From: Eledone cirrhosa | Taxonomy: Eukaryota | Assembly: GCA_964016885.1 (NCBI GenBank) | Contig: OZ024742.1 | Location: 58,218,001-58,282,000 of the forward strand | DNA length: 64,000 nt | Direction of reading: 5' to 3' | Part shown: positions 8,770 to 36,650 of the stretch, one piece after another | Numbering within the stretch: the stretch's first letter is position 1 | Layout: each line of letters starts with the position of its first letter | Position numbers and translations under genes: made by a program | Notes under the pieces: generated by a model | The model's input: only the letters and a program-made list of their open reading frames with translations | Told to the model about the DNA's origin: nothing | Databases searched by the model: none

Positions 8770-11373
8770 GCCTTTCGTTACCATATTTCTAACCAAAATA
8801 CACCCCTTATGTGTTTCAATTAATTTCTAACATAATCATAAATTTAGTCTGGTTTCATTAAACAACTAACTTTTTTATTTATCAACATATTAATGTGATT
8901 TTTTGAAGAAAATTTAACGAAAGGTTCTCAACCAATTCTATTCCATAATTTTTGTCTCAAAGTGACTAATTACAGGTAAATACAGGTAAATTCAACAAAA
9001 TATGAAATTATTTAAATTTTGTTCAAATATCGCTATAGAAAATGGGTTATTAGCTAATATTTAATTGGCTATACAGCAAAATTTTACTATAGAAGAGTTG
9101 TGCACATTACTGGATTTATCAGGTGAATTTAAACACACAAAAGACAGGTGTACCATAAAGGTATAAATAAAACGAAAGACTGGAATTTGTCTGAAGAAAA
9201 CTAGAAAACAAAATACACACACACCAACTAGATTAAATAAGCTCTCCCACATACATAGATACGCAGAAATATACAATAATGATTTACAAAAGAAATTAAT
9301 CAAAACTCGTTACTCACCTTACAGGTAAATTAAAATAACAGGTAAATTAAAATTACACAAAGAAACCACCATACCAACAGTTACATTCATCCATCCACTT
9401 ATCGTTACAACCACACATAATATTCCGTTACACAACCTTGCAGAATGCACATTAGAAAGTTGTTACAACAGACCTTCCACTAGGAGCTTTCCTTTTTTGA
9501 TGAAGGCATTCACGACACTGCCTTTTGCGACCCTCAATTTTTTTCTAATTTATGGAGATCAGCTGAATTCAGAGGGAAATCTCTCTGGCAGGCTTTGTTT
9601 TTTCTCCCTACAGTTATTTTTTTTTTAGGAATAACCAGCTCTTAATTGTGTTGCTACATCTGCTCGGAACTGCAGATGGTCGCATCGCTTTCGAGCCGAT
9701 CCCGATTTGGTATATAGTATAAAAGCATTAGTAATACTCATATTTACTCATATATACCAAACAAGGTATCGCCACCATTTATTCCCCAATCTGCCAACTG
9801 GATAATAAGACATCATCTGATTCATCCGATCTACACCAACCATGTACCTGTTATAATCGAGATTCACAAATGGGGTGCCATTTTCATCCACATGTGGCCG
9901 TGCACAGGTAGACAGAAAATTGATCTGCCTCTTATCTCTGTATGCGGTCGCTAGCAAATTTCCTTTCTGCCGTTGAATTATTTCGCCTTTTTTTTTTTTT
10001 TTTTTGCTTTTTTTATATCCAACGGCAGTCTTTTTCTATTAGCGATCACTGTAGCACATGTATGTGTTGCCACAGTATCTAAATTCTCCGCAAGTTTGAC
10101 CGAACTGAAAAACCGGTCAAAAAATAATATACGGTCCTGGTTATGGTATGGAAGTGATAAATTCCAGACCACATCATACCCTAGGCCATGCTGACTTACA
10201 TAATTGTCTCTTTTGCCAGTATAAAATTCAAATCCAGAGCAGTACCCAGTATTCAATTTGCAAATCTTCCAAACTTTGAAACCCCATTTTGTGGGCTTTC
10301 CTGGCATATATTGTCGAAAACGCACTCGGCCTTTATAGCCCACCATACACTCATCGATAGATAAATATCTCCCTGGTTTGTAAATTGTTTTATATGTGTT
10401 TTGAACACAATCAATGAGGGGTCTTATTTTAAATAAGGGATCATAGTTTGGTTCTCCACGTACTGGTGTCCTGCTCGTATCTCTTACATGTAAATACTGC
10501 GTCAATTTTAAAAACCGTGTCCTCGTCATTATACTTGAGACATATTCGTCTCCAAAGGGTTTATCGCTACTCCAGTAATTTGTAATTCTGGGTAGCTTTC
10601 TAATGCCCATAATAATATTTATGGCAAAATAAGCCCTAATTTCATTTAAGCTTGTGGGAAACCACAAACTATCCTTTTTTTCGCTTTGTTTACTTTCAGC
10701 GTAACAGTTTGTTTCCGCCGTAATAATTTCAAACAAGCTCATAGGAAAAAGTAAAAGGAAATAGTCTAAAGCTTTGCTCTCCTGGGATAGACTGTGACTT
10801 GGTTCAGTTTCTTCATAAAAATCACTGAAAGAAACGGTTTTTAAATTTTTACTCCATTCAGGTGCCAATTCATTTTCTTTATCGCTGTCATCAAAGCTCT
10901 CGGATTCACTGTTTTCACTTTCGGAAAATGAAACATCGGATTCATTAACAAATACCACGTGCTTTTTTTTTTCAGTTATAGAGTTAGATTTTTCAAGGTC
11001 TTCAGTAGAAAATCCTTCGAATTCTGACTCGCTGCTTGACTGAATGAAATTGGTATCCATTTTTTGTCAGAATTACAAATTTTCAAAACACAACAGGAAC
11101 AAATTTGGAAAAAAATCTCCCAAAATTCACAGAATTAAAATAACATGTCGACATTTGTCCAAAACTGTAGCTCAATTGTTTACGTAGTATAATCACATGT
11201 TTTTACAAATGTACTAACGAGATTTGCTCTGATATTCTCATTTAAATATGAATGTGTGAGTACGGTCGGTTTTGGGCGGCTTGGTCACATGAACCAAAAT
11301 TTTTTTCTGGCGGCTTGGTCACATGAACCAAAATTTTTTTCTGGCAGCTTTGGCCGGTTTGGTAACGAAAGGA
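8770..11373 (-). mobile_element. piggyBac element 2 (PGBD4-like)
   Basis: TTAA TSDs at 8766-8769 and 11374-11377. TIRs gCCTTTCGTTACCA / TGGTAACGAAAGGa. A 360-aa ORF (11060->9978) has SIDECM and FFDRFF, followed by a frameshifted C-terminal part. Confidence 0.93.
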
Positions 11374-12171: not shown

Positions 12172-15100
12172 TGTAGCATAGCGGCCCTTTACGGCTGTGA
12201 CTCAGCACGTATGAGAGTTGCGTCCCTTTACGACGGTCGTAACTCAGCACGTATAGGAGTTACGTCCCTTTGCGACAGGCGCAATCCCCATTGGCAGATT
12301 CATGTACTAAATGGAGTTGCGTCCCCCTGGGGACTATATATCTGAGGGCTGGCAAGCCATCAGCCTCTCTCGCATCCTGACCTTCGAAGCGACAACAAGA
12401 ATACCTGAGACCTTGACAAGAGATGACTCCTGTCCCACTTCCTTCGCCAGCAAGAAGAAGAATACCGGCAGCCTAAAGAAATACTAACACCTCCAAGAGA
12501 AGATTTCTGTTCTTTTCTACACACTCCAGTCTGGGAGTTGTGACCAACTGAACATCTACATGTGGTAACAATTATTTATATTAATTTATTTGACTTCATC
12601 ACCATCATCATCATTTTACGTCCGCTTTTCCCTGCTTGCAAGGGTGGGACGGGAACTGATTCTGGCTTGATTTCTACAGCTGGATGCCCTTCCTAAAAAC
12701 CAACCTCATTTACAGTGAGTGCTGGGTGCTTTTTTTGCCGTGGCACCTCCACGTCCACTTTCTACAGCTGAGTAAACTGGAGCAATGTGAAATAAAGTGT
12801 CTTGCTCAAGGAAACAACACATCACCCGGTCTGAGAATTGAACTCACAACCTTTCGATTGCAAGCCCAATGCTCTAACCACTAAGCCATGTGCCTCCTTC
12901 TGTGAAGTAAAACCTTGTCACAACACTCACCGGCATTTATTGTCATTCTTGATTATATATATATATGTACACTGATACTAATCTCCTAAATTGGTGACCT
13001 GACGTTTTTTTTTAAACAAAAAAAAAAAAAAAAAGAATTGGAAATAGTACCGTGTGTATATAAAAAAAACGAGAAAAAAAAAACATTTAATACAGAACAA
13101 CACACTTGATTCTGATATGGCTGTATTGACCGATCTAAACATATTTCTCTGTAACACTTAACATCAAACTCTTCACATGTGCAAAACGAACACCCAAAGT
13201 TATTTACAAACAAACAAACAGCAATTGTATAAATGTTTTTTTCCTTTTTTTTCTCCTTTCTTCTTTTCTTCTCTTCTCTGGCTAAAAATTTTGAGGATGA
13301 CAAGATGGCAGCTTTCTTCTCCATCAATAGTGTTTTTGGCGTGAAATAGTTCGCCATGTTGGATTTAGTTTTAAGTTCCCTGCCCTATACCTTATTAATG
13401 ACATCACTCGGTTAGTCGCTCCTTTGAATATTGTCCCGGATGCATTATTTTTCCTGTCCAGTTGTTTGACAGAGAAAAATAAGCGATTTTGTTTTCCTTT
13501 GCTGTTGGAGACATTTTTCCAAACAGAGATGATTTTTTTTTGTTTTTGGCAAATTACCTACGGTATACCAATGGCTTCTTATTCTGTTCTACCTACGTAC
13601 ACGGGCGACGTAAGGCTATGGTTCGCCCAACTCGAACCATTTTTCGAGGCGAACAGAGTTGACGAGGCACAACAACGTCCTCTGGTCCTTAGTGCAATTC
13701 CTCCGGCACTTCTCCCAGCGATTAAGAACCTGGTGTTAGAGACACCCACAGACGCGACGTACAAGTCTCTAAAGGCTGAAATACTCAGCCGGACTGCACA
13801 CTCTGCAGAAAAAAGATTTAGGGCTCTGGTCCATCTGGAGCATATAGGGGATGGCACCCCATCGAACCTCCTAAGGCGAATGAAGGACCTAACAGAGGGG
13901 TCGGTAACGGAAACTGCCATGCTGAAGCAGTTGTTCTTCTCGCGTCTACCGACCAACGTACAGGGAATTTTGGCCCCCATTAGGGATACTTGCATGGTGG
14001 ATCAGCTTGCCGCCTCTGCGGACAAAGTTTTCTAAGTTACGGGTGCTGGAGGCAGCGAACCCCTTGCCGCTGTTTACCACCCAGCTCAGACCACACCTGG
14101 CTATGCCATCTACGCGGCAGCGCCGATAGACAGCTCAGCTATCATGGCGATGCAGAAGTCCATTCAGGAACTCACCCTAGAGCTCCATAAGATGAAGGCC
14201 AGGTGTGGTGCCCATTTGCGCCCCCGCAGTCACGGGAGATCGCAAAGTTTTAGCAGTCATTCCAAGTCACCAGCTTCATCTTTATGCTGGTATCACGAGC
14301 GATTGCTGAGAGCGCAAACTACTGTGTGCAACCTTGCTCGTTTCATAAGGCGGGAAACGCCTAAGAGGTCTGCTGATGGGGACAGTTGACCTCAACATAA
14401 AGCCACCAAACTGCCATTTCTTTATTAAGGACCTTATGTCGGGAAGAGGTTTCCTCGTGGATACAGGAGCCTCCTGTAGTATTTGGCCGGTCCATTGCCT
14501 GAAAGATACCCCCGTAGAGTCACCTGTTACTCTGCAGGGAGTTAATCACTCATCTATAAAGACATACAGGCAAATCTCGCTTTCTCTCAAATGCCTAAAT
14601 CTTTGTAGAGATTTTAAGTGGATTCTTACGGTTGCCGATTTGCCATTCCCTATCTTAGGAGCGGATTTCCTCCACAACTTCTCTTTGACTGTGGACGTCC
14701 GTGGCCAACGTCTGGTGGATAACATCACCGATTTTTCAATTTGTGGCCGGAAAGCCAATGCTCCAAACAGTCAGCCCCATATTCTTCATCGCTGCCGCTG
14801 GAGACGCCTACCATTCGTTGTTAGGTTCTTTCCCGGAGCTCACCGATGGAAATTTTTGAGTCACCGAGCCAACACACTCAACTGAACATTTCGTTTCCAC
14901 CACCAGTGCTCCAGTGTTTGCGCGTCCACGCCGCTTACCGGCGGACAAATGAAAGGCAGCACGGTCCAAGTTCGATCATATGCTGCAGCTGGGCATTATT
15001 CGCCCATCTACGAGTCCTTGGGCTTCACCGTTACACATGGTGCCTAAGACTTCCGGCGACTGGAGACCCACTGGGGATTATAGAAGGTTAAATGCCATGA

Positions 15101-18943: not shown

Positions 18944-19152
18944 CCCTTTAGCATTCACATTACTCTATGTATACTATTGTATTTTTGTGGTAAAGGTTTT
19001 AACCTCACATAATTATCTCACAATATTGAATCTATGAGATTTTGAAAGTATTTATTTCGAGAACAATACCTTAACATCACTTTGAGTGACCAGTTACAGT
19101 TAGTATCAACATAAACAGGTAGAGAATTCTGGCCGGTTTGAACATTAAAGGG
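18944..19152. mobile_element. piggyBac-type MITE
   Basis: TTAA|CCCTTTAGCATTCA ... TGAACATTAAAGGG|TTAA, 209 bp, non-coding. Confidence 0.88.
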
Positions 19153-19348
19153 TTAAACTAATTATGTAACGGCTATAAAAAGTAATGTATATTAAAAAAG
19201 AAATAGGATTTTGCTTCAAGCATAGCTTTATACAATATGTATAAATATTTCGTATCTCCTAAGAAATACGGTTTTAGGAAGCCGTAGCTATGCAAATACT
19301 GGGGGGCTAACGCCCTCTGGTGATGTCCAGCAGAAGCAAGGGGGACAA

Positions 19349-19390
19349 CAGTCTATGCATTTCAGGCTTAACTGGCCTTCGTCAGGACGG
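19349..19390 (-). ncRNA. Minimal type I hammerhead ribozyme
   Basis: Minus strand: GTC-CTGACGA-AGGC cagttaa GCCT-GAAA TGCA TA-GAC. Stem III is palindromic (ATGCAT). Confidence 0.65.
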
Positions 19391-19545
19391 TCCCTCCCAC
19401 CGCTTGCGACTGTATATTGATTAATTTTGATATAATATGTAAGTATAATTAGCTTAACCATAATCAAATACAAGAGATATTCAATAGTTTATGGTAATTG
19501 ATTGGTTGCCTCAATTGACCTAATATTTGAAAACAACGTTTTTTT

Positions 19546-19566
19546 CTATCTATCTATCTATCTATC
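19546..19566. repeat. (CTAT)n microsatellite at the head of the LINE array
   Basis: CTATCTATCTATCTATCTATC. (TATC)3 recurs at 26167-26178 and TATCTAT at ~31812. Confidence 0.9.
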
Positions 19567-20535
19567 TTCTCTCTTTAGATTAAAGAAATCTAATCGCTGG
19601 GATAGACACGTGTTAAACTTGCTCGGTAAGTTTTGTTTGAATTTCTTTAGAAATTCGTCATTGTGAACTTTTAATTTTATACCAATTTGTAGAGGGACTG
19701 ACAGGTCAAATTTTGATCTGGTCAGTCCTCCAAAATATCGTGCCCCTCAGGGCAAAAACATCCAAAATATCTTCGAAAATATTTTTTGCAAAACACTTCA
19801 TTTTTTAAAAAATGGCCGAAGCACCTACTTCTTTGTCAAAACAAGAAGATGGGAAGGGAAAGCCATGCCTACTTGACCAGCAGGTAGTAGCAGACATGGA
19901 GAAAGGAAGGCCAACATCATCGCCTCAACATTTAGAAGAGGAACAAGCTTCAGCTGCTTGTAAGCAACTGAACACGCCTGACGTCACAAACGTCACATGT
20001 ATCCACACACAGAAGGAAATATATGTAATAAACACTTCGTTTCGTAAAGAAATGGAAATTCACACAATAAAAAATGAAAATAACAGCCCACAACAGACAC
20101 CAAAAAATACAGAAAATGAAAGAATTTGAAAACACATCCAACAATACCAATCAAAAGGAAAAAAATGTCAACACAAACACCAAAGAAAATACAAACAACA
20201 GTAGCAACAACAACAAGAAAGACAACAGCAAAATTTCTTTTGCTGATACCGTAAAAAATCCGGAAATATTTCAACTTTTGGATTTAACCAATGTGAAACA
20301 AAAGTTGGAAGAAGCTAAATAATATGTAACTTTTGGACCCAATGGGTCATTTAGCATAAATTCACCACAAGAACTAAGGAGAGAGAATGCCCTGAACACG
20401 GTGGTTTTCAGGACAATCTCAAATGCATCCAAAAAACCAGCTCAACTATCTCAGAGTGAGATTGAGGTGGTTTTAAGGAACCACATGGATAACATTTTAT
20501 TTATTCAGAAAGCCAAACTTTTTCGGCAGCATCTC
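19567..20535 (+). mobile_element. Tx1-clade LINE family B, 5' ~970-bp fragment
   Basis: Near-identical to 26179-27147 (constant offset of 6612). Confidence 0.92.
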
Positions 20536-23500
20536 TTTACGATGGACACATGTGCTGAGCTCGTTCGGTAAGTTTCGTTTAAATTTATCCGGAAATTGTG
20601 AACTGTAAAATTTCATTTTTGTACCATTTTGTAGAGGGACTGCCAGGTCAAATTTTGATCTGGTTGGTCTCTCAAAATATTCTGCGCCTTTGGGCGAAAT
20701 AGTATTGTAAACATTTTATCTTTCGAAAAACTTCAAAAAACCCTATTTTGAGAAAAATGGCTGAAGCATCTTCACCATCAATCAAAGAAGGAAAGGGGAA
20801 GTCATACTCACAGCTTCCCCCTGCAGCAGATGCCAAAGGCAGAGGTCAGAGAGAGGAAGAATTGTCTTCACCTGTTGACCGACCACTAGATGTAGCCACA
20901 ACTATACAAGAAACTGAAAACAACAACAACGACAACAACAGCAACAATAAAGACAACAAAAACAACAACAACACAAACGTCACAAGTATCCACACACCAA
21001 ACGAGAAAGACAACAACAACAACAAAGAGGAAAACAACTCAAACGACGAGAAACAAAACAATACAAACACCAACAACGAAAACAAAATATCTTTTGCACA
21101 AACGGCTAAATTATCAGTCACGTATGTGCTTGAAGATATTTCAAAAGCAAAAGAAATGCTGGAAAAAGCCAAGAAATATGTATCTTTTGGCGAAAACGGT
21201 TCGTTTTCTATAAATTCACCTCCAGAACTATAAAAACAGACGGAATTACGAACTGTCGTATTCCGTACAATTTTAAATAAAACAAAAAAACCAGCACAAC
21301 CATCTCAAGCTGAAATTCAGTTAGTACTGAAAGAAGCGATGAGAGACATCACTTTCATACAAAAGGATAAACTCTATGGGAGTCTATCCATATTGATGAA
21401 AGACGAATTTGCGGCGAAAAAATACTCTGTGTCGCCAATTCGTTCCACACACTACACCTTCTTCCCCACCTACATGGGTAAAAAAACCCAGAGGATATGG
21501 ATAACCACCATCACCCCAAACATAAACTACTGGTGGTTACTAACCGGTTTCCTCAATTTAGACGAGGACAACCTCATTTCAATAGGGTAGGGAAGGCATC
21601 CGGCAACGCGTTCAGTGGAACGAGCATCGAAGTTCTGACCCAAATAAGGCCAGAACGTATCGCCCAAATCCCTAAGCACGTCATGCTGGATGACCGTACC
21701 CACCTCAACATTATTGTGGAGGGTAGGCGTCCCTCCTGTTACCTCTGTGGCAATAGAGGTCACCTGAGGGCTGCCTGTCCCCAGCTCACACAGAAAAAAA
21801 ACACTGCTACCAACACCACCCCAACAACAACAACAACAACAACCAACAACAGCAACAACAACAACAAACACGTGAAAAAACAACACAATACTGTCCCACC
21901 CAATCCCTCCCCACCCAAAACAAATACAAAAACACACACCGCAAACACTACCAGAAAACATACCCCTCCCACCCAACAAGGAAGACGAACCCCTTTCGTC
22001 GCAAGACGAAAAAGATCCCTTCCAACAAGTAAAAAGAAAGAAGAGGAGACGCACCACAGACACACATGTTAACTTTAACCCTCCCCAAGAGAAAACAAAC
22101 TACACGCAAACCACTCCTCCCTGTCACACAACACTAACTGCTACACAAAAAAAGACCTTACAATATACATACATGAACACAGACAACAAAGAACTACTGA
22201 AAACAATTTCAGCAAACCCTTCGGTCCAAACTGAAGGGCCTAACTTTAAAACTGCTGTGGGACTACCTCATTTAAAAATGATTAAAGTCCCAATGAACTT
22301 TTACAAAACACTGAAGATAAATTTCACGGAGGACGTGGGCACCCCCTGCGCCAAACCAATCAACCGCGTCCTCCTAAAAAATTTCACCCCCCCACCCCAA
22401 CAACACACTGATGCCCCTTCACTTCCACAAACCACCACCCCACCCAACAACCCATCCCCAACCAGCATGGAAATTGAGTGGCCCGTTTCCCGGGACGCAG
22501 AGAGGTAAGTGCCTTTTCTCCTTACCACCAACATGGCTGTGCTAAGAGTAGGGTGTCTAAATGCGGGTGGCCTGGGCTCATCTTGGAAGCAAGCAATGCT
22601 TCTAAATGACCTCAGGTCACAATCTATGAATGTGATGGTTATCTGCGAGGCCCGGATCAGCAACATGCGGCAGCTAGCCCCCACCTTTGACGACTTTGAG
22701 ATGCACGCATCTCTCTGTCAGCCCGGAGGTGGGGGTGGGGTTGTCGTTCTGCTGCAAAAACATCTGGGCCTTGCAACAGATAGTTCACTTGGACCCAGGG
22801 GGTCGACTGGTGGTGCTGGACCTTGGCAGTGGTGAAGGTAGAGCCTTTAGGCTGGTAGCCGCATATGCCCCTTTTGGGACAGAGCGGCCCGACTTTTTCC
22901 AGCGTCTGGAGTCTTTTCTAGGGACGTCCCGTTCCCTGCTTTTAGTGGGGGACTGGAATGGTATCCTGGATGCACGTTGGGACTATGCAGGGGCATGTCC
23001 CGATAGAGAGGGGTGCAACAGCCTCAAGGGGTTACTCGGCCGATTTGACCTGGCCGATAGATTTCGACTAGATTTTCCGATGGTGCCAACCTGGTCTTGG
23101 TCAAATCGCAGCGGATCATCTAGGTCGTACCTAGATAGGTTTTTAGTTAGAAATAAGGACAGGGACTTTTTAAGTTGTCCAGAAATGCTCATGGTTGGCT
23201 ATTCAGACCACAAGTTGGCGACCTGCATGGTCAACCTTGATAGAACGCATAGACAGGGCCCCGGTTACTGGAAGCTCACCTTGTCCTTGCCGGCAAGTAG
23301 AGCTTACAGGGATCGGATTAGTACGTTAGTTAAGGAACGGTTGACTGGAGCGATCGTCAACAGCAGGTGGTGGGTATCTCTAAAGAGAGAGATTAGAGTA
23401 GTCTCGATAGAATTTAGTAAGGTTCTAGCTGCGGATAGGAATAGGAAGGAAAGGGAGCTAATAGATAGAGTAGAAGAGGCAATTAGAAGCGGCGACGTGG

Positions 23501-26166
23501 CCAGAGTGCTAGCGTCGAGAACGGCTTTGAGCCAGTTTTTCAACGCGAAGCACGAAGGCTGCGTTGTCCGAAGTAAAATACGTGCTCTAGGGAACGAGGG
23601 GACCAAAGCTGTTAGCTGGGCCCGCGTGACAGAGGCCAACAGTGGAACTAAATCCACCATCCGGTCTTTGCGAGACCTGGACGGACGGGCGATTCTTGAG
23701 CCTAAGCAGATGTGTGAGGCCTTTCAAAGGCACTTTGCCTGACTGTTCGGGAGGGGCGGGGAGCCGGTTGGGAATATGGACTTCGGTCCATACCTCGACG
23801 GCCTGCCGCGTCTCTCGGACAGGGAGGCGAAGTCCTGCGAGGAGCCGATTTCAGCCGCTGAGATAGAGGACGTGCTGAGCCAATGCGGCAAACGCAAATC
23901 CCCGGGTCTCGATGGTCTTCCTTACGAATTATATCTAGCTATGCCGGACTTGTTCCCCGATCTCCTCGAGGCGGTCTACTGCAACTGGCAACAGAACGGG
24001 AGAATTCCCTGTACTGTGAGGAAAGACGAGAACAAGGGGGACGAAATAAGTAACTTCAGGCCCATAACTCTGCTAAATACAGAGTTACAGATTTTGGCCA
24101 AGGTGCTAGCAAACAGGTTGGCGCTCGTCGTGGGCAACCTGGTGGGAGATGCGCAGACATGCGCTATCCCGTCCAGGTCCATCCATGACAACCTCCACCT
24201 CATGCGATACATCATAGAGAGGGTTGGGAACGAACCCGGCTTTGGTGGGGCTCTGATCAACTTGGATCAATCTAAGGCGTTCGATAGGGTCGACCATGGT
24301 TACCTTGATGCGGTGCTAGCGGCGGCAGGCTTCGGACCCGATCACTGCTATGCACAGCGGCCGCATCTGCTCTAGGGTCAAGGTGAACGGCTACCTCTCG
24401 GAGCCGTTCAAAATCGCGCGGTCCATCCGACAAGGGTGCCCTCTCTCTCCTCCCTTCTGTATGTGTTGACTCTCGAGCCACTACTGCGGAAGTTGGAGTT
24501 GTTGCAGGGCATCCCTTTGGAACCGGGATTGCGGAAAGCGGTGTCGGCCTACGCCGATGACGTGACAGTAATGGTGTCGACGGCCTCCGAAATCGAGGCG
24601 GTCGGCACCTTACTGGAGGAGTACGAAAGGTTCACAGGGGCTAAGCTGAACCGGGACAAGTCGATCGGTTTGCAACTCGGCACGTGGAGGGGCAGACCGA
24701 TGCCCTCCGATGGCGTCGTCGGACGCTGGACGGAGGGCCCGGTGAAGTTGCTCGGGGTCGGGTTCGGACCGGACCTCCAGGTGGAGAAAAACTGGGCGGA
24801 GGTTACGAACAGGGTGTTTGCACTGACCCAGAAGTGGGCCAGTTGCAAACTATCCCTGAAAGGTCGGGCGGAGGTGGCGAACACCTATATAGCGTCCGTC
24901 ATCTACTACCGCCTGACCGTAGTGCCTTGCCCAAGGGAAACCCTCGCCAAGATGGAGCGCGCGCTCTTCCAATTCCTTTGGAAGAGGCGGGCTCCTATGG
25001 TGAGGAGATCCATCTGCTGTCAACACCCTTCGAAAGGAGGGCTGGGGATGCCGTGGCTAATGATGCGTAAACACGCATTAAGGCTACAGCACCTCTACGT
25101 ATTCCTCACCGGTCAACCGGTGTGGGCCTCGTTTGTGAGACGAACCTTTCCCAGACTCGTCTCACTCACAGAGCTGCAATCCTGGGTCAAGCAAAGACCT
25201 AGAAAACTGGGCGCCTGGCACACTGAGTGTGCCCAGGCACTCACCGCCCTCTGGCAGGCGGATCCGGTTATCAGTGGAGACTCCACCGCAACATTCTATA
25301 GAGGGCTGGTACGCAGCAGGTGCGACGGCGCCCTCGGAGAAGCCCTAGACATGGAGGAGGACGAACTGGCCAGCCTGTTCGGTAGGACATTCAGCCCGGG
25401 ACCTCTGGACAACTTCCAGAAGTCCCTGGCCTGGCAGTGCTACCAAGGGGCTCTACCCGTTCAAGAAAAGCTCTACAGACACGGGCGCCCGGGTAGGGAC
25501 CCCGCCAAAAAGATCTGTCCCAGATGCGTGTGCGACGAGGAAACCGTTGCACACGCAATGGTACACTGCTCGGGCGTAGCCGATCTGTGGGGCTATGTCG
25601 AACAACTGCTGTCAAGGGTGGGACCGATCCGGTTGACCACCGAGTCTATTGTAATGATCAAGCCGCCTCCCCCCTTCAAAGATGAAGGAGAGGCGGTGTT
25701 TCTGTGCGTAATAGCCATGGTGAACGCGTCTGAAAGGACTGAGGTCAGGCACCTTTCTCTCTGGCCAACAACTGGTCCGTTTCTTCCGATATCATTTCGG
25801 AAGAAGGATCAGGATGGAGAGAGAGGTGCTCCACCCCAGTCGTTTTTATGAAAGGTGGGTGAAATGGCGAGAATGGCCCGTGTGAATGGGCCTTCTCTTT
25901 ACATAAGCCTGTAGGTTGAAAGGAGGAAGGAACGAGGGAGCACCCCCTCTCTGTGCTCCTGAGGAAAAGGGTTGCACACTTTTTTCGGGGGTGTGTGCGA
26001 CCCCCCCCCTATCGAGGATTTTGTTATAAATTTTATTTTTTGTTATATTTTATTTTATTTTTATATATTGTTATTGCCTCCTCCTTATTGAGGACGCCTT
26101 TTTGTGTAAACTCCCCCCTTTGTACTTGTCCCACTTTTGATACCCTGGTGGCAAATAAAAGAAACA
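20533..26166 (+). mobile_element. Tx1-clade (L1 group) LINE family A, full length, decayed
   Basis: ORF1 ~20757-22508 has a CCHC knuckle (CYLCGNRGHLRAAC). ORF2 ~22533-25914 has APE (GDWN, SYLDRF, SDH), RT (KSPGLDG, DQSKAFDRV, YADDV) and C-terminal CPRC..ETVAH..HC. Ends with AATAAA. Confidence 0.93.
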
Positions 26167-26178
26167 TATCTATCTATC

Positions 26179-29100
26179 TTCTCTCTTTAGATTAAAGAAA
26201 TCTAATCGCTGGGATGGACACGTGTTAAACTTGCTCGGTAAGTTTTGTTTGAATTTCTTTAGAAATTCATCATTGTGAACTTTTAATTTTATACCAATTT
26301 GTAGAGGGACTGACAGGTCAAATTTTGATCTGGTCAGTCCTCCAAAATATCGTGCCCCTCAGGGCAAAAACATCCAAAATATCTTCGAAAATATTTTTTG
26401 CAAAACACTTCATTTTTTAAAAAATGGCCGAAGCACCTACTTCTTTGTCAAAACAAGAAGATGGGAAGGGAAAGCCATGCCTACTTGACCAGCAGGTAGT
26501 AGCAGACATGGAGAAAGGAAGGCCAACATCATCGCCTCAACATTTAGAAGAGGAACAAGCTTCAGCTGCTTGTAAGCAACTGAACACGCCTGACGTCACA
26601 AACGTCACATGTATCCACACACAGAAGGAAATATATGTAATAAACACTTCCTTTCGTAAAGAAATGGAAATTCACACAACAAAAAATGAAAATAACAGCC
26701 CACAACAGACACCAAAAAATACAGAAAATGAAAAAAATTGAAAACACATCCAACAATACCAATCAAAAGGAAAAAAATGTCAACACAAACACCAAAGAAA
26801 ATACAAACAACAGTGACAACAACAACAAGAAAGACAACAGCAAAATTTCTTTTGCTGATACCGTAAAAAAACCGGAAATATTTCAACTTCTGGATTTAAC
26901 CAATGTGAAACAAAAGTTGGAAGAAGCTAAACAATATGTGACTTTTGGACCCAATGGGTCATTTAGCATAAATTCACCACAAGAACTAAGGAGAGAGAAT
27001 GCCCTGAACACGGTGGTTTTCAGGACAATCTCAAATGCATCCAAAAAACCAGCTCAACTATCTCAGAGTGAGATTGAGGTGGTTTTAAGGAACCACATGG
27101 ATAACATTTTATTCATTCAGAAAGCCAAACTTTTTCGGCAGCATCTCGGTGCTAATGAAAAACAACATAACAGCACAAAAATATTCCACCGCGCCCATTG
27201 TGTCCACCCATTTTACATTTTTCCATACATACATGGGAAAAAGAACACAAAAAATAAAAATTACATCTATAAGACCCAAAGTAGATATTTGGTGGATACT
27301 TTATGGCCTAATTGACTTTGAACAAGACATTTTGATCTCAGTAGGAAAATCCTCCAGGGATATATTTACTGGGACTAGCGTCGAAATTCTGGTGCAGATG
27401 AGCCCAGAACGCATAATGAAAATCCCACAAAGAGTACCTCTGGATGGACAGACCTACATAAACATTTCGGTTGAGGGTAGACGGCCCGCATGTTACCACT
27501 GCACAAGCAGAGGTCACCTAAGGGCTGCCTGTCCTCAATTGACAAAAAGAAAACCACTTTTACCAACACCACCACCACCACTACGACAACAAGAAAAAAA
27601 CAACAGAGAACACTACCCCCCCCCCCCCAAAAAAAAACAAATACAAAAACACACACAGACACTACAGAACCCCAAAACATACCCCTACCCATCAACACGG
27701 ATGAGGAACCCCTATCGACGGCACCCAGCGGCGATGAGGAGGTACCCTTCCTACCCGTGAAAAGAAAAAAAAGCACCGCATGAACAAAAACGAAACAAAC
27801 GCACAAACACCAGCACAAACAAAACACCCACAACAAAGAGAAAACACACGCAGGAACCACAGACAAAAACAACACAGGAAAAGTACACATACACTTACAT
27901 AAACAAAGAAAATAGAACACTGATGGAGACCATCAGAAACAACCCTTTGGTCAAAACCGAAGGGAAAACTTTGGATAGCTCCAACAAAAAAAAAAATGAA
28001 CCTGAAACTGATCAGGGTCCTTATAGGAACTTATAGATACCTAAAAGAAACATTTGTAGAGGACATGGGGGAATTCGTGCGTGAAACCAATCAACCGCGT
28101 CCTCTTAAAAGACCTCCCCACCACAGGCACCGCCACCCAAATCATCCCCATCCCACCAGACACCACCACCCCAAGGAATTTGTTCAGCCTGGTCCCCAGG
28201 AGACGAAGAGGTGAGTGATTTTTTTTCCTCTTCTTAACTTTTCAGCACCAACATGGCCAATATAAGAGTTGGATGTGTGAATGTACGCGGCCTGGGGATG
28301 CCCTGGAAACAGGTCAAACTCTTAAACGACCTCAGGTCGCACAGTATGGATGTAGTAGCCATTTGCGAGTCCAGGATCCACAGCGAGTGACAACTGGCCC
28401 CCATCTTCAACGACTTTGAGATCTACGCATCTCTGTCAGCCGGGAGGTGGGGGTGCCGTTTTGCTGCGGAAACACCTGGACCTCGTAACACAGACGGTAC
28501 ATCTGGACCCGGAGGGTCGACTGGTGGTCCTAGACGTTGACAGTAGTGAAGGTGGCGCCTTCAGGCTGGTGGCCGCATATGCCCCATCCGGGACACCGTG
28601 GCCAGACTTCTTCAAACGTCTAGAGACTTTTCTGGGAACATCCCGCTCCCTGCTGTTAGGGGGGACTGGAATGGAATCCTAGATGCACGTTGGGACTATG
28701 TGGGAGCATGTCCCAATAGAGGGGGTGTAACAGCCTCAAACAGTTAATCGGCCGATTTGACCTTGTCGATAGATATCGACTAGATTTTCCGACTGTGCCA
28801 CTGTGGGCGTGGACTAATCGTAGCGGAACATCCAGATCGTACCTAGATAGGGTTCTAGTTAGAAAGAAGGATAGGGACATGTTAAGCTGTCCACAAATGT
28901 TCATGGTTGCCTATTCAGATCACAAATTAGTGACCTGCTTAGTCAACCTTGACAAAACCCATAGACAGGGACCCGGCTACTGGAAGCTGGACTTGTCGTT
29001 ACCGACCTGCAAAGCCTACAGTAGATGGATTAGCACTTTAGTTAAGCAGCACTTGACGGGGGCCATTGTCAACAACAGATGGTGGTACTCTCTCAAGAGG

Positions 29101-31810
29101 GTAGTTAGATTAAACTCAATAGGTTTTAGTAAAGAATTAGTGTTAGATAGAAATAAGACCGAAAAGGAACTGGTAAAGTAGAAGAGGCACTTAAGAGTGG
29201 CAACGTAGCCAGCGTGCTAGCGACGAGAACGGCCTTGGACCAATTCTTCGACGCAAAGCATGAAGGCTGCGTTATCAGAAGCAAAATACGTGCTCTGGGA
29301 AACGAGGGAGCCAAAGCTGTTAGCTGGGCCCCGAGTGACGGAGGCGAAAGTGGCAAAAAGCCCACGATTCGGTCTTTGAAGGATCAAGACGGATGCGTGA
29401 TACGTGAGCCGAAGCAAAAGTGCGCAGCCTTTCAGCAGCACTTTGCTCAACTGTTCGGGCAGGGAGGCGCGCCGGGAGGGGCTATGGATTTTGATTCATA
29501 CCTCGACGGCCTACCGCGACTCTCGGACAGCGAGACAAAATTCTGCAAAAGGCCGATTTCGGCCGAGATAGGTGACGCGCTCAGCCAATGCGGCAAACGC
29601 AAATCTCCAGGTCTCGACGGTCTGCCCTACAAATTTTACGTAGCAATGCCGGACTTGTTCTCCGGTTTCCTGGAAGCGGTCTACTGCAACTGGCAGCAGA
29701 ACGAGAGAATTCCCAGTTCTGTGACCAAGGGCGTAATCACGTTAGTCAAGAAGGACGAGAACAAGGGGGATGACATAGGCAACTTCCGGCCCATAACTCT
29801 GCTATACACAGAGTTACAGATTTTGGCCAAGGTGTTGGCAAAGAGGCTGGCGCTTGTCGTCGAAAACCTGGTGGGAGAAGCGCAGATATGCGCAATCCCG
29901 ACCAGGTCCATACAAGACAACCTCCACCTCATGCGATACATCATAGAGGGTAGGGTGTAAACCCGGCTTCGGTGGAGCCCTGATCAACTTGGATCAGTCT
30001 AAGGCTTTCGATAGGGTTGACCATCGTTACCTGGATGCGGTGCTTGAGGCGGCAGTCTTCGGTCCCGTGTTCAGGGGCTGGATTGCTGCAATGCACAACA
30101 GCAACATCTGCTCAAGGGTCAAGGTGAACGGCTACCTCTCGGAGCCGTTCCATATCACGCGATCCATTCGACAGGGATGCCCTCTCTCCTCCCTTCTGTA
30201 CGTACTGACTCTCGAGTCACTACTGCGGAAGTTGGAACTTTTGCAGGGCATCCCTTTGGAACTGGGACTGCGAAAAGCGGCGGCGGCCTACGCCGCCGAC
30301 GTATCAGTAATGGTGTCGAGCACCTCGCAAATCGGGGAGATCGGCACCTTACTGGAGGAATACGAAAGGTTCACAGGAGCGAAGCTGAACCGGGACAAAT
30401 CCGTCGGTTTGCAACTCGGAACGTGGAGAGGCAAACCGATGCCTTCCGATGACGTTGTCGGATGCTGGACGGAAGGACCGGTAAAGCTGTTAGGGGTCTG
30501 GTTTGGTCCTGACCTCCAGGTGGAGAAGAACTGGAACGAGGTGACGCCCAAACTATCCTTGAAAGGTCGAGCGGAGGTGGCGAACACTTTTATAGTGTCC
30601 GTCATCTACTACCGCTTGACCGTTGTGCCTTGTCCAGCCAAAATGCTCACCAAAATGGAGTGCGCGCTCTTCCAATTCCTTTGGAAGAAACGGGCTCCTT
30701 TGGTGAGAAGATCCATCTGCTGCCAATACCCTTCAAACGGAGGGCTGGGGATGCCGTGGCTGATGATACGCAAACACGCACTCAGACTGCGGCACCTCCA
30801 CGTATTCCTCACCAGACAACCGGTGTGGGCCCCGTTCGTGAGGCGAGCCTTCCCACGACTCGTCTCGCTGACCGAGCTACAGTCCTGGGTCAAGCAAAGA
30901 CCGAGGAAAATGGGCGACAGGCACATCGAATCCTCTCAGGCGCTCAGTCCTCTGGCAAACGGACCCGGCGGTCAGTGGAGACTCCACTTCGACATTCTAT
31001 AGAGGGTTGATCCGCAGCAAGTGCGACGACACGCTCGGAGAAACTCTAGGAGTAGAGGAGGACGAACTGGCCAGTCTGTTCGGTAGGACCTTCCGCCCAG
31101 GACCAATGGACAACTTCCAAAAGTCCCTGGCCTGGCAGTGCTACCGAACAGCTCTACCAGTTCGAGACAAGCTCTACAGACATGGGCGCCCGGGTAGGGA
31201 CCCTTCGAAAAAGATCTGTCCGAGATGCGTGCGCGACGAGGAAACCGTCGCACACGCATTTGTACACTATTGTCGCGGGTGGGACCAATCCAGTTGACCA
31301 CCGAGCCCATTGTCATGATCAAACCGCCACCCTCCTTCAAAAACGAGGGAGATGCGGTTTTCCTATGTGTTAGGCTATGGTGAAAGAGGTTATATGGTGG
31401 ATGAGGTTAAAAGGGCTGAGTCAGACACCTTTCCCTCCGGCGAGCAACTGATTCGTTTTTCAAATATCCTTTTGGAAGAAGAATCAGGATGGAGAGAGAG
31501 GTGCTGTATCCCAGCAAATTTTATAAAAGGTGGGTGAATGTGGCAAAGATGGCCCGAGTGGTTGGGCCTTCTCTCTATATCAGCCTGTAGGTTGAGAAAA
31601 AAGAGGAAGAGAGGGAGTACTCACTCTTGGTGCTCCTGGAGATGAGGGTTGTACATTTTTTCGGGGTGTGTACAACCTCTGTGTAACACCTCCCCCCCTA
31701 TTGGGGATTTCAATTGTTATTTGTTATTGTATTAATAGTTTTATTTTCATATACCTGTATGTAAACTCCCCATTTGTATGTCCCCTTCTTTTGTGATATA
31801 ATAAAGAAAT
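26179..31810 (+). mobile_element. Tx1-clade LINE family B, full length, decayed
   Basis: ORF1 26424-28214 (CYHCTSRGHLRAAC). ORF2 28253-31590 is APE-RT with the catalytic motif mutated to YAADV. Ends AATAAAGAAA-TTTATCTAT. Confidence 0.93.
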
Positions 31811-32087
31811 TTATCTATATTCTCTTTTGTCGTTATTTCTCCTTTCTTCTTCCTGTATTCATCCATTTATTTATTTTTATTCATTTAAATATTTATGTAT
31901 TTTTTCTTGCCTTCCTCCTCTTTACACCCTCTCTTATATCTCTAATTCGCTCCACATCCTTTTCTTCTTTAAGTTTATCATATTATTTGTGGTATATAAA
32001 TGTTGAGATTTGATGAAATAAATCACTGCCAATACAGGAATTGAAATATCAAGACCGTAGAGGTATGTCATATATCAAATCATATAT

Positions 32088-32147
32088 TTTATCTGACGAG
32101 GACATACTGAAAAAATAAAATAGTACCTTTGAAATATATATAATAAA
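32088..32147 (+). ncRNA. Minimal type I hammerhead ribozyme
   Basis: TTTAT-CTGACGA-stem II-GAAAT ATAT ATA-ATAAA. Stem I is TTTAT/ATAAA. Confidence 0.65.
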
Positions 32148-32347
32148 GCATATATTTTGATTATGTGAATATCTTCATTTGTTAATATTTTGAATAATAT
32201 ATATATATATATATATGCAAAAGTTCTATTTAAAATTGTTGGGATACAACAAGTAAATATTTTTATAACTGATATAAAGCACTCGACAAGTATTTGGAGT
32301 AGATATACGATATTAATAAATGGAAACTATATTTATAAAACCATATT

Positions 32348-32412
32348 TATTTCATTATACATATTTCAGGGATACCAAATTAAATTATGGTATGCCTTCA
32401 TCAGACAAAATA
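32348..32412 (-). ncRNA. Hammerhead ribozyme in the Penelope pLTR
   Basis: Reverse complement of the motif at 36651-36715. Confidence 0.78.
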
Positions 32413-33779
32413 CAATATATAACAGTTTTACAAATAAGCTTTGACGTACCCTTTTAAAATGCAACCATTATTTTTGGAAGCCATCTGGATAGTGAATTGT
32501 TTATATTATTTTAATAAGTCTTAGTGTTAAGGACAATTAGAAAAAGACGGAGAGAAAGAAAAAAGACGGAGAGAGAAAAAAGAAAAAGAAAAAAACGTGG
32601 AGAAATATCGGAGAGAGAGAAATGCATGGAGAAAAAAGAGAGAGATAAATAAAGACAGGAGCAAAGAAAGAAAAAAAGAAAAAAGAAAAAAGGAAGAAAT
32701 AAGAAAAACAGAGGAAAGCAACAGAGAGATATCAAGTCATCAGACAGATAGAAAAACTCAAGAGAGAGAAATAATATATAGAGAGAGGGGGAGATAATGA
32801 AAACTTTACGTCATGTCATATTAAGTTGAGTTAACAATTCATATGAAATGAATAATAAAAATATTAATATTAATATTCATGAATGGGACATAAATATATA
32901 ATATGAGAAATTAAACATTGTTTAATAATGATTATATGTTTAGTTTAAAACTTGAGATCAATATACTAAAATTTGAGAAACCACTATCTTACGGCAAAAT
33001 ATATATACACACGTCCTGAAAATAGAAATTATATCTACTCAGGTCTACAATATAGACATACAAAACGCAAATGATTTCTCTTAATCACTGCTATACATTC
33101 CTTGTGTTATAAAAAGTTCACAGTATATATACATAAATATATACGATTAACATTCATGCCTTCATATATACGATTACCATTCATGCATTTAACATTCTGT
33201 TAAAATTATGCATATCTGCAATCAAAACTGCGTGGGTAGGCATGCACACACATAACTCTCACCCATACATATACATATATATATATACACATACATATGT
33301 ATAAATAAATATTTGCGTGCGTCTTCACCAATTGTTAGACCCGCATCGCTCATGTACACATACAGACAGATATACAATCATAAAAAAAAACCTATAACAC
33401 TTTTATATGCATGTTAATACACACATACACATCTGTATAGAGATAATCAAATATCAATATATTACTAAAGGATTATACTTTGGAAATATAATTATAACAA
33501 TATAAATTTAAAATACCAAAGGATTATATTTTGGAAATACAATTATATCAGTATAGTCTAAAGGACAAACGAATTCTAGAGATATCAAAACATTAAATAT
33601 CTTTAAAAACACTATAGAGTATCTTAAGTTAAAATAATATGTTTCATATATTTAGTATAGAAATTTACCCTACGTATATTTTAATCAAGATATTGAAAGG
33701 GTAGACTTATGAAAAGTATGAGAAGCTATCAGAATCAAAACAAACCTAATAAAAATAAATAAAAATTAAAAAATTAAAA

Positions 33780-33850: not shown

Positions 33851-36650
33851 GTTAAATAAATATTATATCAATATAATTTAAAAATTTTTAAATTTTAAAA
33901 AGTTTTAAAAATTTAAAAATTTAAAAAATGTTTAAAAAGCCAAGGATTTTACAGATATCCTTATATTTAGTATAGAAATTTATCTTACGTATATTTTATT
34001 TAAGACATTGGAAGTATAAACATTTTAGAGTAGTTTATTATATCTATGTTTATATTTAGGAAGAAAATTTAATAAGAAAAAGGTGAAGGAATCTAATGAT
34101 TTATCGACAGGTTTCATATATTAACTAAATTACTTAATTACTTATACTACATTTTAAATTTATATTTAAACGTTGAGTTCAATCTATGTCTGCAGCAACT
34201 GAATAAATTATTCCTTAAATTAAGGGAATTTTTGGACTTTAATATAAAAAATATTTCTTCGATACAAAGATCACAATTTTCTGAAGAGGAATTAAAAGGA
34301 GTAGCTTTTGAAATAATATTCCAAGTCATCGAATATTTAACATTATCTCGTTTAAGGTCCCATAGTAGGCTAGATAGCGAAGTTGAAGATTTTTTGTTTG
34401 GATCTGTGAAAGAATTTTTATGATTATTGAAGCGAAATTTAAATTCTGTAGAGGTAGAACCGACATAGTTAAATGAATTTAAATTAGTTTTAACATTACA
34501 ATTGTACACTACATTTTTAGCTAAGCAGTTGTTATTTAACGGACAGTTAGATTTATTTCTACAGTTACAGTTATTCAATTGAATATTGCTTGGGTTATTA
34601 TTGGTATTTCGGTTAGGTTTTAAGTTTCTATTATTAATTCTATTAATATTTTGTGTTAATTTTATAGTATGTCTATTAAAAATTGAGTAATATTTATGTG
34701 TTCTAGGGAAGCGTTTGTCAAGAGCTTTAAAGAATAGTTTAGCAATAGGGGTTTTAATATTTAGTGAGAAAGGGGGAGCAAACCATAATATATTTCTAGT
34801 TCTATTTCTTTTTCGGCTTTGGGAATTATTGTAATGTTTTCTATTATAGTTGTTAAAGTTGTTACCATAATTAAAATTGTTATTATTTTGGTTTGTTTGC
34901 TTATTATTATTATCGATGTATTTAATTTTATTTCTATATCCAGCTCTACCTAACGCTTCGTTGTAATACTGCGCTTTTTCATCAAATATATTTTTATTAG
35001 ATGAAATTCTTGAAATTCGTTCTTGAACAGAGTTCACTATAGTATTTTTAACAGATCTGGGGGTGATTAGAGTTAAAATTAACATAATTCAATCTCATTT
35101 AGTTTGTGAAATGGATAATGAAGACATGTGTTGAGATTTAGTGTTACATCAAGAAAATTGACTATTTTATGGTTATTCTCTATTTCTACTTTTAGATTAA
35201 GGTAATTAAAAAATTGTATAATTTGTTTTCTTTTTCTATTTAGTTCACAGCTATTATTTTCTATAAGTAAAAGCATGTCATCACGATATAAGCCTCCGGT
35301 TACACCTGGTATTTTTCTATGTAGCGAATTAATTATAAATAGGCCCACAAGGTCCGTTACCTGAGCTGAGTCTGATGATCCCATAGTTATGTCAAAATTA
35401 TTATTTCTATCTGCCCTAGTCTAGAGTTGGTTATTAAATTCTATCAATGTTTTCCTTGCCGATAATATAATGTGCATTTCATTGCTAGTTAGGTCTGTAT
35501 GTTTAAATGCGTTATTTAGTGCCTTATTCAGTAGATTAGGAGTGATAGATGAATAGTAGTTAGCAATATCCAGCTGAATAAACTTATTATTATAGTTATA
35601 TTTAATTTCTTTAAACCAATCGATAACCTCACTAGTCCCTTTCCATAATTTTAAGTAAGATAAATTAGGTAAGTTTTTAATTTGTTGTATTACTCTGTCT
35701 AGAATATTTTTGCTAAGTTTGCCCAGGTCAGATTTAGATGGTGCAATCAATCTGACTGGTAAATCATTTTCAAAGTTTCTTTTGTGATCCTTCATATTGA
35801 TCTTAGGTTTCCTAGGCATGAAGGGTTGTGTTTTATTCTCAATGTCTAATTCATGCATTATACAAGATGCATCTGTATTCAGTTTTTCAAGTTCGTCCTT
35901 ATTTGCTACCTTGTACTTTTTCCTTAGTTCCTTCAATATAAGGTCGTTATAAATGTCCTTTTGTATTCCATAAAGATTATTAGTTTTGTCCGACTTCACT
36001 AGAATTTTCTCTGTTTTCTCCAAGTTTTCAATATTATCCTTAATACTTCTTAAGTAATCCTGGCCTTTGAAGTTTTTTTTTAATTTGATGCCTTGGATGA
36101 TAGATATATCATTTTCAAAATCCATTAGTAGTTTGTTGGGGGGTGGATTTTTTTTAGATTTGAAAATTTTATCCAGATTTGAAACATTTTCATTTAGATT
36201 AGATTTATCAAAGTGGAAAGCACGCCACCTGATTCTTCTTATAAAAGAGTCTGATTTTTCTATTAATTGTTTAATAAAATCTTTGTTCCTAGGTAGAGGT
36301 ATGTCTTTTAGAGAAGAAGAGATCTTAAAGAATTCCATTTTTTCAGTTATAATGTAAAGCGCTCAACAATACAGGAGCAGAATATATGCAAAAGTTCTAT
36401 TTAAAATTGTTGGGATACAACAAGTAAATATTTTTATAACTGATATAAAGCACTCGACAAGTACGTTTTTTTCTTTTTCTTTTTTCTCTCTCTCCGTCTT
36501 TTTTCTTTCTCTCCGTCTTTTTCTAATTGTCCTTAACACTAAGACTTATTAAAATAATATAAACAATTCACTATCCAGATGGCTTCCAAAAATAATGGTT
36601 GCATTTTAAAAGGGTACATCAAAGCTTATTTGTAAAACTGTTATATATTG

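Follow-up and report, generated by a model that had tools for sequence, protein, structure and literature searches.

What keeps an intron-shaped segment in the 5' untranslated region (UTR) of a retrotransposon, and in its genomic copies? The question is raised by a stretch of Eledone cirrhosa DNA of 64,000 nucleotides (nt), hereafter the window (contig OZ024742.1, positions 58,218,001 to 58,282,000, of the 3.0-Gb assembly GCA_964016885.1). It contains two full-length elements, A and B2, and a B fragment, B1, which are microsatellite-targeting long interspersed elements (LINEs) with two open reading frames (ORFs) and have thousands of copies in the genome. These elements carry two motifs of the 5' splice-site (donor) type, site 1 in the 5'UTR and site 2 at the end of ORF1. 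Both motifs are conserved across diverged lineages, and none of the genomic copies counted is spliced. We tentatively propose, with a probability of about 0.42, that the two donor motifs are signals which the spliceosome may recognise but which are retained, with little or no excision.

Two donor motifs in a LINE clade

The elements and their site-1 segments are as follows.

20536..26166, + strand: element A, full-length; 5'UTR, ORF1 from 20757, ORF2 at 22533-25914, AATAAA at 26154, (TATC)n tail
26208..31812, + strand: element B2, full-length; ORF1 from 26424, ORF2 at 28253-31590, broken
19555..20535, + strand: B1, a (TATC)n junction followed by ~940 nt from the 5' end of a B element; second copy at 26167-27147
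20568..20634, + strand: site 1 of A, intron-shaped segment, 67 nt, beginning ~30 nt from the 5' end of the element
26238..26304, + strand: site 1 of B2, intron-shaped segment, 67 nt
19626..19692, + strand: intron-shaped segment of B1, GTAAGT…TTTGTAG, 67 nt

A preliminary description of this DNA had reported CG/GTAAGT…TTTGTAG/AGGG (slashes mark the segment borders), exactly 67 nt long, at three positions and in two diverged families. The sequence, which reads TCG before the segment, and the length are right at all three positions. However, B1 and B2 are one duplicated insertion: 19555-20535 and 26167-27147 are identical at 968/981 positions in a single ungapped block, including a 5' junction that is absent from the other 28 B loci. 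Since this ~980-bp duplication flanks A, the window holds two independent examples, not three. The interiors do differ (the A and B segments are identical at 50/67 positions), but A and B are subfamilies, with alignable UTRs that are 73% identical and ORF2s that are 78% identical. Thus, the equal segment length is partly simple descent. The repeat around A looks like a target-site-like duplication. It runs from the (TATC)n target to a CATCTC microhomology with the 5' end of A, and it may be an unusually long duplication of this kind or a recombination product.

Comparison with further types extended the conservation of the GT-AG signals and of the length well beyond A and B. Subfamily C (385 exact matches) was reached via a loose end in read contigs. 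A protein search that started from a 68%-identical relative gave 29,659 candidates, of which 150 were scored. Six further UTR types, D-I, came from 80 upstream regions out of those 150 matches and from 30 loci of an ORF1 search. The comparison set is therefore nine 5'UTR types, A-I. The ORF2s of D-I are 66-69% identical to those of A/B, and A/B/C and E are two deep branches (ORF2 67% identical in nucleotides). Amino-acid identity to the ORF1 domain of H is 28% for A, ~29% for F and ~50-65% for D, E, G and I (55% for E). All types share a 5'UTR plan of 202-230 nt, composed of GC-richer first 30-45 nt, an AT-rich part of ~65 nt, GC hairpins and an A-rich leader.

In A/B/C, site 1 reads GTAAGT…TTGTAG and is 67 nt long in 75/83 classed copies, 68 nt in 7 and 71 nt in 1; two further copies are deletions. 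In E it reads GTAAGG…TTGTAG, and among 60 copies (the first 63 listed, less three tandem duplicates) 55 have 67 nt, 56 have GTAAG and 59 have the AG. F and G carry AG/GTTYGT…TAAG of 65-67 nt and I carries GTAAGT…TAAG of 60-61 nt; in these three types, the GT…AAG segments measure 60-66 nt and include a long stretch free of AG. H has the donor GTAAGT in 10/14 copies and, by eye, no AG at 58-70 nt in any of them. D lacks a GTRAG donor in 24/24 of the 5' ends examined and, by eye, resembles a 4-nt deletion relative to I. Whatever the reading, D demonstrates that an element can do without site 1.

When A and E are compared without gaps, 11/12 terminal positions are identical versus 21/55 interior positions (~38%, the background level). 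Variants common to at least three A/B/C copies occupy 0/11 end columns versus 25/56 interior columns (Fisher p 0.005), a test biased towards the acceptor, which was part of the selection for 30 loci, and giving p 0.07 for the donor only. In the unbiased E set, the counts are 1/11 and 12/56 (p 0.68). Among 3000 dinucleotide shuffles, a donor within the first 60 nt has P 0.010 in A and 0.007 in B, and a donor plus an AG at 58-70 nt has P 0.003 and 0.0007, respectively. Taken by itself, the donor stands out from the shuffles in A, B, C, H and I (P 0.007-0.05), whereas D, E, F and G give P 0.23-0.78. The sequence features of a U2-type intron, namely GT, AG, a branch-like yUnAy (the branch consensus), an AT-rich interior and conserved ends, are present in A/B/C and E, weaker in F/G/I, and incomplete in D (donor) and H (acceptor). 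A U12-type intron was considered for the TTAAC located 12 nt before the AG in E/F/G and was ruled out, because no donor reads RTATCC, the U12 donor consensus.

A short upstream ORF (uORF) starts a few bases from the 5' end (window 20542-20571; also the 5' end of locus L210) and stops at a TAA within the site-1 donor. It is found in A, E, C2 and some B copies, and excision would lengthen it. The uORF was dropped as an explanation of site 1 because H, I, D and G have no ATG in exon 1.

Site 2 was absent from the preliminary description.

22502..22510, + strand: site 2 of A, GAG/GTAAGT at the ORF1 stop, 28 nt before the ORF2 ATG
28208..28216, + strand: site 2 of B2, GAG/GTGAGT at the ORF1 stop

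The motif G/GTRAGT stands at the ORF1 end in 9/9 types, 26-44 nt upstream of the ORF2 ATG. A/B/C/E/G have it in phase 2 (Arg-stop), D/H/I in phase 1 (Gly-Lys-stop) and F in phase 0, where the frame reads through; since it is kept in three reading phases, neither the protein nor the stop codon accounts for it. The sole type-level change in its intron part is A to G at +3, in B. In the A, B and C copies checked, GTRAGT occurs in the sense strand of the 5.6-5.7 kb at sites 1 and 2 only, and E has site 2 plus one other. Among 80 metagenome sequences of distant relatives, the ORF2 start was identifiable in 39; none of these 39 has G/GTRAGT 25-45 nt before ORF2, and any GTRAG within 100 nt is found in 14/39 versus 64/369 background windows. 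The nearest AG lies 30-54 nt from the donor, making the resulting introns very short, and splicing to the first downstream AG would join ORF1 to ORF2 in frame in A/C, B, E/G and F, whereas in D/H/I it would not (worked out by hand). Site 2 has no convincing local intron and is more strictly kept than site 1. An acceptor common to the 3'UTRs of all types, as needed for an ORF1-only mRNA, was not found in a survey of 32 loci (4 gave no anchor and 3 were mis-anchored); it is strong only in the E/G-type ends, where a polypyrimidine-CAG resembles an acceptor.

Unspliced copies and the hairpins at the acceptor

Intron-less copies had been proposed as a check on splicing, and the search for them returned none against 3,895 intact copies at site 1, which indicates that the transposition template is unspliced. 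The counts are 0 vs 820 in A/B/C, 0 vs 1013 in E and 0 vs 2062 in G, and the upper 95% bound is ~0.08%. The searches used the same anchors with only the gap altered, and the numbers, being exact-match counts, are lower bounds from one assembly; for site 1 they covered A/B/C, E and G. At site 2, 0 spliced vs 529 intact copies were counted in D/H/I, and a short-gap search in E/G, which has no matched denominator, gave two matches, both ordinary non-splice deletions.

Other forms of splicing left no trace either. Exact exon-exon junction patterns were found 0 times for A/B and 0 times for C versus 919 intact acceptors. The acceptor joined to foreign upstream sequence was found 0 times with a filter that passes only ~40% of random joins, and no donor joined to distant exons was found with filters that each catch roughly half of the possible exon starts. 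Whatever passed these filters was a point mutant, a small indel or an unrelated repeat. Three sets of contigs of unspecified kind from one sample (X1-X3) likewise showed no joint at the A/B segment.

Papers are cited here by PubMed Central identifier. Genomic copies with exact intron loss are the mark of the spliced integrated retrotransposed elements (SpIREs) of human L1, and their counts in A/B/C, E and G are all 0. In human L1, spliced copies make up ~2% of the full-length ones though most L1 RNA is unspliced (PMC5860796). Compared with this value, the zero counts mean that the copied RNA of the present elements is unspliced to an unusual degree, and every counted copy stems from unspliced RNA.

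The segment is directly followed by hairpins in A and B2.

20634..20673, + strand: long hairpin of A, abutting the acceptor; the G of the AG is predicted to be paired at the hairpin base
20685..20696, + strand: small hairpin of A, predicted by folding
26304-26342, + strand: long hairpin of B2, predicted by folding
26353-26366, + strand: small hairpin of B2, predicted by folding

The hairpins had been described before, and the region indeed folds far better than shuffles in the sense strand (z -5.1 in B and -4.6 in A); the antisense strand also scores (z -3.8 and -3.4). The AGs that follow the acceptor lie 69 and 79 nt from the A donor, in the 5' arm of the long hairpin. The co-variation claimed for the A/B hairpins did not hold: 0/19 pairs change on both sides across 53 A/B/C sequences, and the paired fraction was reached by 500/500 shuffles and the covariation score by 482/500, although the register of the small hairpin shifts between A and B and column counts understate its covariation. 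Across the sister families E/F/H/I, the second hairpin does covary, with 5/12 pairs changing on both sides and a score reached by 0/500 shuffles, in eight hand-picked sequences. In E, its G-U pairs and cUUCGg loop favour the sense RNA (-13.3 vs -7.4 kcal/mol). An Rfam search of 19000-33000 for known structured RNAs, such as spliced leader (SL) RNA, small nuclear RNA (snRNA) and ribozymes, gave 0 matches at E<=5. With no Rfam match, and with the Sm-like AATTTTGA sitting in a hairpin apex, an origin from SL RNA, snRNA or a ribozyme was ruled out.

Possibly recognised but retained splice signals, and other readings

If the donors are recognised, the U1 small nuclear ribonucleoprotein and the early spliceosome would land near the cap (site 1, ~30-45 nt from the start of the 5'UTR) and at the end of ORF1 (site 2). 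The match to the consensus, together with A/G at +3 as the one tolerated change, suggests that U1 binds. This binding would be stabilised across the segment, in most lineages, by a 3' AG at the distance of a minimal intron, and the hairpin, which starts at this AG and contains the next AGs, would hinder completion of splicing. The benefit may be support of transcription and protection of the A-rich RNA from premature polyadenylation; each element has 2-3 internal poly(A) hexamers in ORF1/ORF2. Alternatively or in addition, full-length RNA might be retained in the nucleus, and 5' splice-site motifs are known to inhibit export (PMC4380460). Retained signals would account for the zero spliced counts, for site 2 and for H, which keeps its donor without an acceptor. 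The presence of site 2 in all nine types and the absence of the motif in distant relatives also speak for them.

Several points weigh against this proposal. The 67-nt length and the TTGTAG common to A/B/C and E are explained more simply by real excision. In A, B, H and I, local folding predicts base pairing over most of the donor (unpaired probability ~0.2 or less), and such pairing would hinder U1 too. D multiplied with the site-1 donor in 0/24 of its 5' ends, and the site-1 donor, judged by itself, does not exceed chance in E, F and G (P 0.37, 0.29 and 0.23). A complete block of splicing despite canonical signals is itself unusual.

The preliminary description had suggested that splicing separates a translated mRNA from the template. 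The conserved GT-AG signals and length and the unspliced template agree with that suggestion, but a spliced mRNA is not supported: no genomic copy records a splice, D without a donor and H without an acceptor both multiplied, and the A/B covariation fails. In its Penelope-like form, which we regard as possible but doubtful, the minimal intron would be excised from the exported mRNA and boost translation, only nuclear unspliced RNA would be reverse transcribed, and site 2 would be spliced too, possibly fusing ORF1 and ORF2 or removing ORF2. The preservation of both ends and of the length between the deep branches A/B/C and E favours such a split, as do the GT…AAG segments of F, G and I with their long AG-free stretch, the shared A/B/C variants confined to the interior (in the acceptor-biased test) and the in-frame fusions at site 2 outside D/H/I. 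Penelope offers a precedent: its RNA is mostly spliced, its copies keep the intron, and deletion of the intron abolishes the protein, not the RNA (PMC2377424). However, spliced RNA would have to be kept from copying to less than ~0.08%, against the cis preference of LINEs (PMC5860796). Further objections are the non-significant variant test in E, the missing ends in H and D, the acceptors of F/G/I, which are AAG and not YAG, the site-2 introns of only 30-59 nt, and the lack of an acceptor common to all 3'UTRs. A retrovirus-like partition of the RNA, which we consider unlikely, would make both sites true introns. Spliced mRNA would be exported, with site 2 possibly fusing ORF1 and ORF2, while the donors would keep unspliced RNA, the sole template, inside the nucleus, and copying in trans would bypass the cis preference.

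It is rather improbable that the motifs are promoter or transcription-factor sites in DNA that resemble donors by chance, with the AT-rich segment as a promoter spacer. Human L1 provides a precedent, since its conserved donor G98U99 lies inside a RUNX3 site (PMC5860796), and site 1 is near +30, where Drosophila LINE promoters carry a downstream element (PMC2377424); the absence of spliced copies would also be accounted for. However, the variation is U1-like (the exon side of site 1 is free, site 2 has A/G at +3, and G>T at +6 towards the consensus occurs in 4/60 E copies), the same motif is found again 2 kb downstream at the ORF1 end, and TTGTAG at 67 nt is left without explanation. Most improbable is a vestige or coincidence with no present function: weak overall similarity is kept among the UTR types (z 1-9 vs shuffles), D and H each manage without one end and the E-G donors are individually unremarkable, but site 2 persists in every type across three phases and the site-1 ends were kept while the interior fell to background.

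The clade and known systems

Intact C and E copies encode ORF2 proteins of 1145 and 1139 amino acids (aa) with Exo_endo_phos, RVT_1 and zf-RVT and no other Pfam family. Thus, intact copies and window fragments show the ORF2 composition of the L1/Tx1 group: an apurinic/apyrimidinic endonuclease (APE), a reverse transcriptase (RT), a C-terminal zinc finger and no RNase H. In the window, both ORFs of A are interrupted by stops or frameshifts and ORF1 is broken in B2 as well; endonuclease and RT domains were found in the broken ORF2 of both elements, and the zinc finger was also seen in A. A separate ORF1 with a CCHC zinc knuckle is present in A (zf-CCHC, E 8e-4, just under the curated cut-off), and CX2CX4HX4C is visible in the ORF1 of locus L401, though without a Pfam match. 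An RT tree unites the elements with unnamed relatives in a clade of their own (support 1.0), apart from TX1-labelled fish proteins. The tree is rough, with 20/22 sequences used, a single plant L1 as the only outgroup and the relation to a TX1-labelled protein of Takifugu not settled. As it does not settle Tx1 membership, the elements are called Tx1-like here.

A Tx1-like preference for repeat targets was found: most A/B/C 5' ends come after (TATC)n or another copy's tail. Types D-I are inserted after (ATT)n, so the target has switched inside one clade. The 3' tails of the copies repeat the target, and copies therefore pile up in tandem in each other's tails. A very abundant SINE-like (short interspersed element-like) repeat with a B-box-like motif often lies just 5' of the (ATT)n target (L210:172-912 and the flanks of many D-I loci; depth 10^6-10^7); it is possibly a partner SINE or a preferred landing site. 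Modules have been swapped within the clade. The ORF2s of E and G are 96% identical, yet their UTRs are weakly similar and their ORF1s divergent, and several copies join the 5' module of one type to the ORF2 or 3' end of another (L203, L204, L209, L210, L228, L393 and L416). A 3'UTR plan is conserved across types (e.g. window 25915-26160), composed of GC hairpins, a CCCC(T)ATTGGGG-like element, a U-rich tract and an AATAAA directly before the microsatellite tail.

Other features of the window are the following.

9978-11066, - strand: piggyBac-type transposase fragment (PF13843, E 7e-66)
13331-14035 and 49153-56263, + strand: pieces of a Gypsy-like long terminal repeat (LTR) retrotransposon with DUF7041, RT, RNase H and an integrase zinc domain; the RNase H region occurs twice
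34147-35088 and 35421-36362, - strand: two equal-length stop-free frames (313 aa) in AT-rich DNA, 1,274 nt apart, probably a repeat that was duplicated; a Pfam scan of the first frame gave no match

In the open literature, no description of introns or U1 sites was found for Tx1 LINEs (subscription journals, Repbase reports and supplements were outside this scope). The extract of PMC13282606 lists L1-Tx1 families without mention of introns, and that of PMC8226300 has nothing on LINE introns. Splice sites in L1 are seen as liabilities, while here paired splice signals are kept under apparent selection without any spliced copy. The LINE clade is young, has thousands of copies with intact members, and includes a natural loss of the donor (D) and of the acceptor (H). 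It therefore provides a ready test of whether LINEs profit from U1 or the spliceosome, or can select unspliced RNA as the template in spite of cis preference.

Kibi, Koshi and crocodilian Tx1 resemble the present elements in having two ORFs, the APE-RT-zinc finger order and insertion into simple repeats (PMC4494074). The targets here, however, are (TATC)n and (ATT)n, and the extract of the same paper mentions no splice signals for those families. Human L1 likewise has a long-conserved 5'UTR donor, G98U99, in RNA that is mostly unspliced, and sequestering of this donor in RNA structure has been proposed (PMC5860796). In contrast to the present elements, L1 leaves ~2% spliced copies, uses distant acceptors, and has a donor explained by RUNX3 (PMC5860796); here we found 0/3,895 spliced copies, a fixed minimal-intron geometry and a second donor.

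Retention of introns through retrotransposition is highly unusual and is a trait of Penelope-like elements (PLEs), of unknown significance (PMC8557442). In Penelope of D. virilis, the start is followed after 46 bp by a 75-bp intron; most of the RNA is spliced, protein production requires the intron, and copies keep it (PMC2377424). The 5'UTR introns of Penelope and Chlamys-3_cRei share with site 1 a short intron shape just after the start, a conserved donor and acceptor, and retention in copies; both overlap an internal promoter (PMC2377424, PMC8557442). PLEs, however, have a GIY-YIG endonuclease and pseudo-LTRs, and their splicing was shown by reverse transcription PCR or Iso-Seq. Pfam scans of the present elements gave no GIY-YIG match and an APE endonuclease instead, so that these are not PLEs but APE-type two-ORF LINEs with a putative intron and a second donor at the ORF1 end. 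The feature acts in the manner of the 5'UTR intron of Penelope or of the 5'UTR donor of L1, yet it belongs to neither system.

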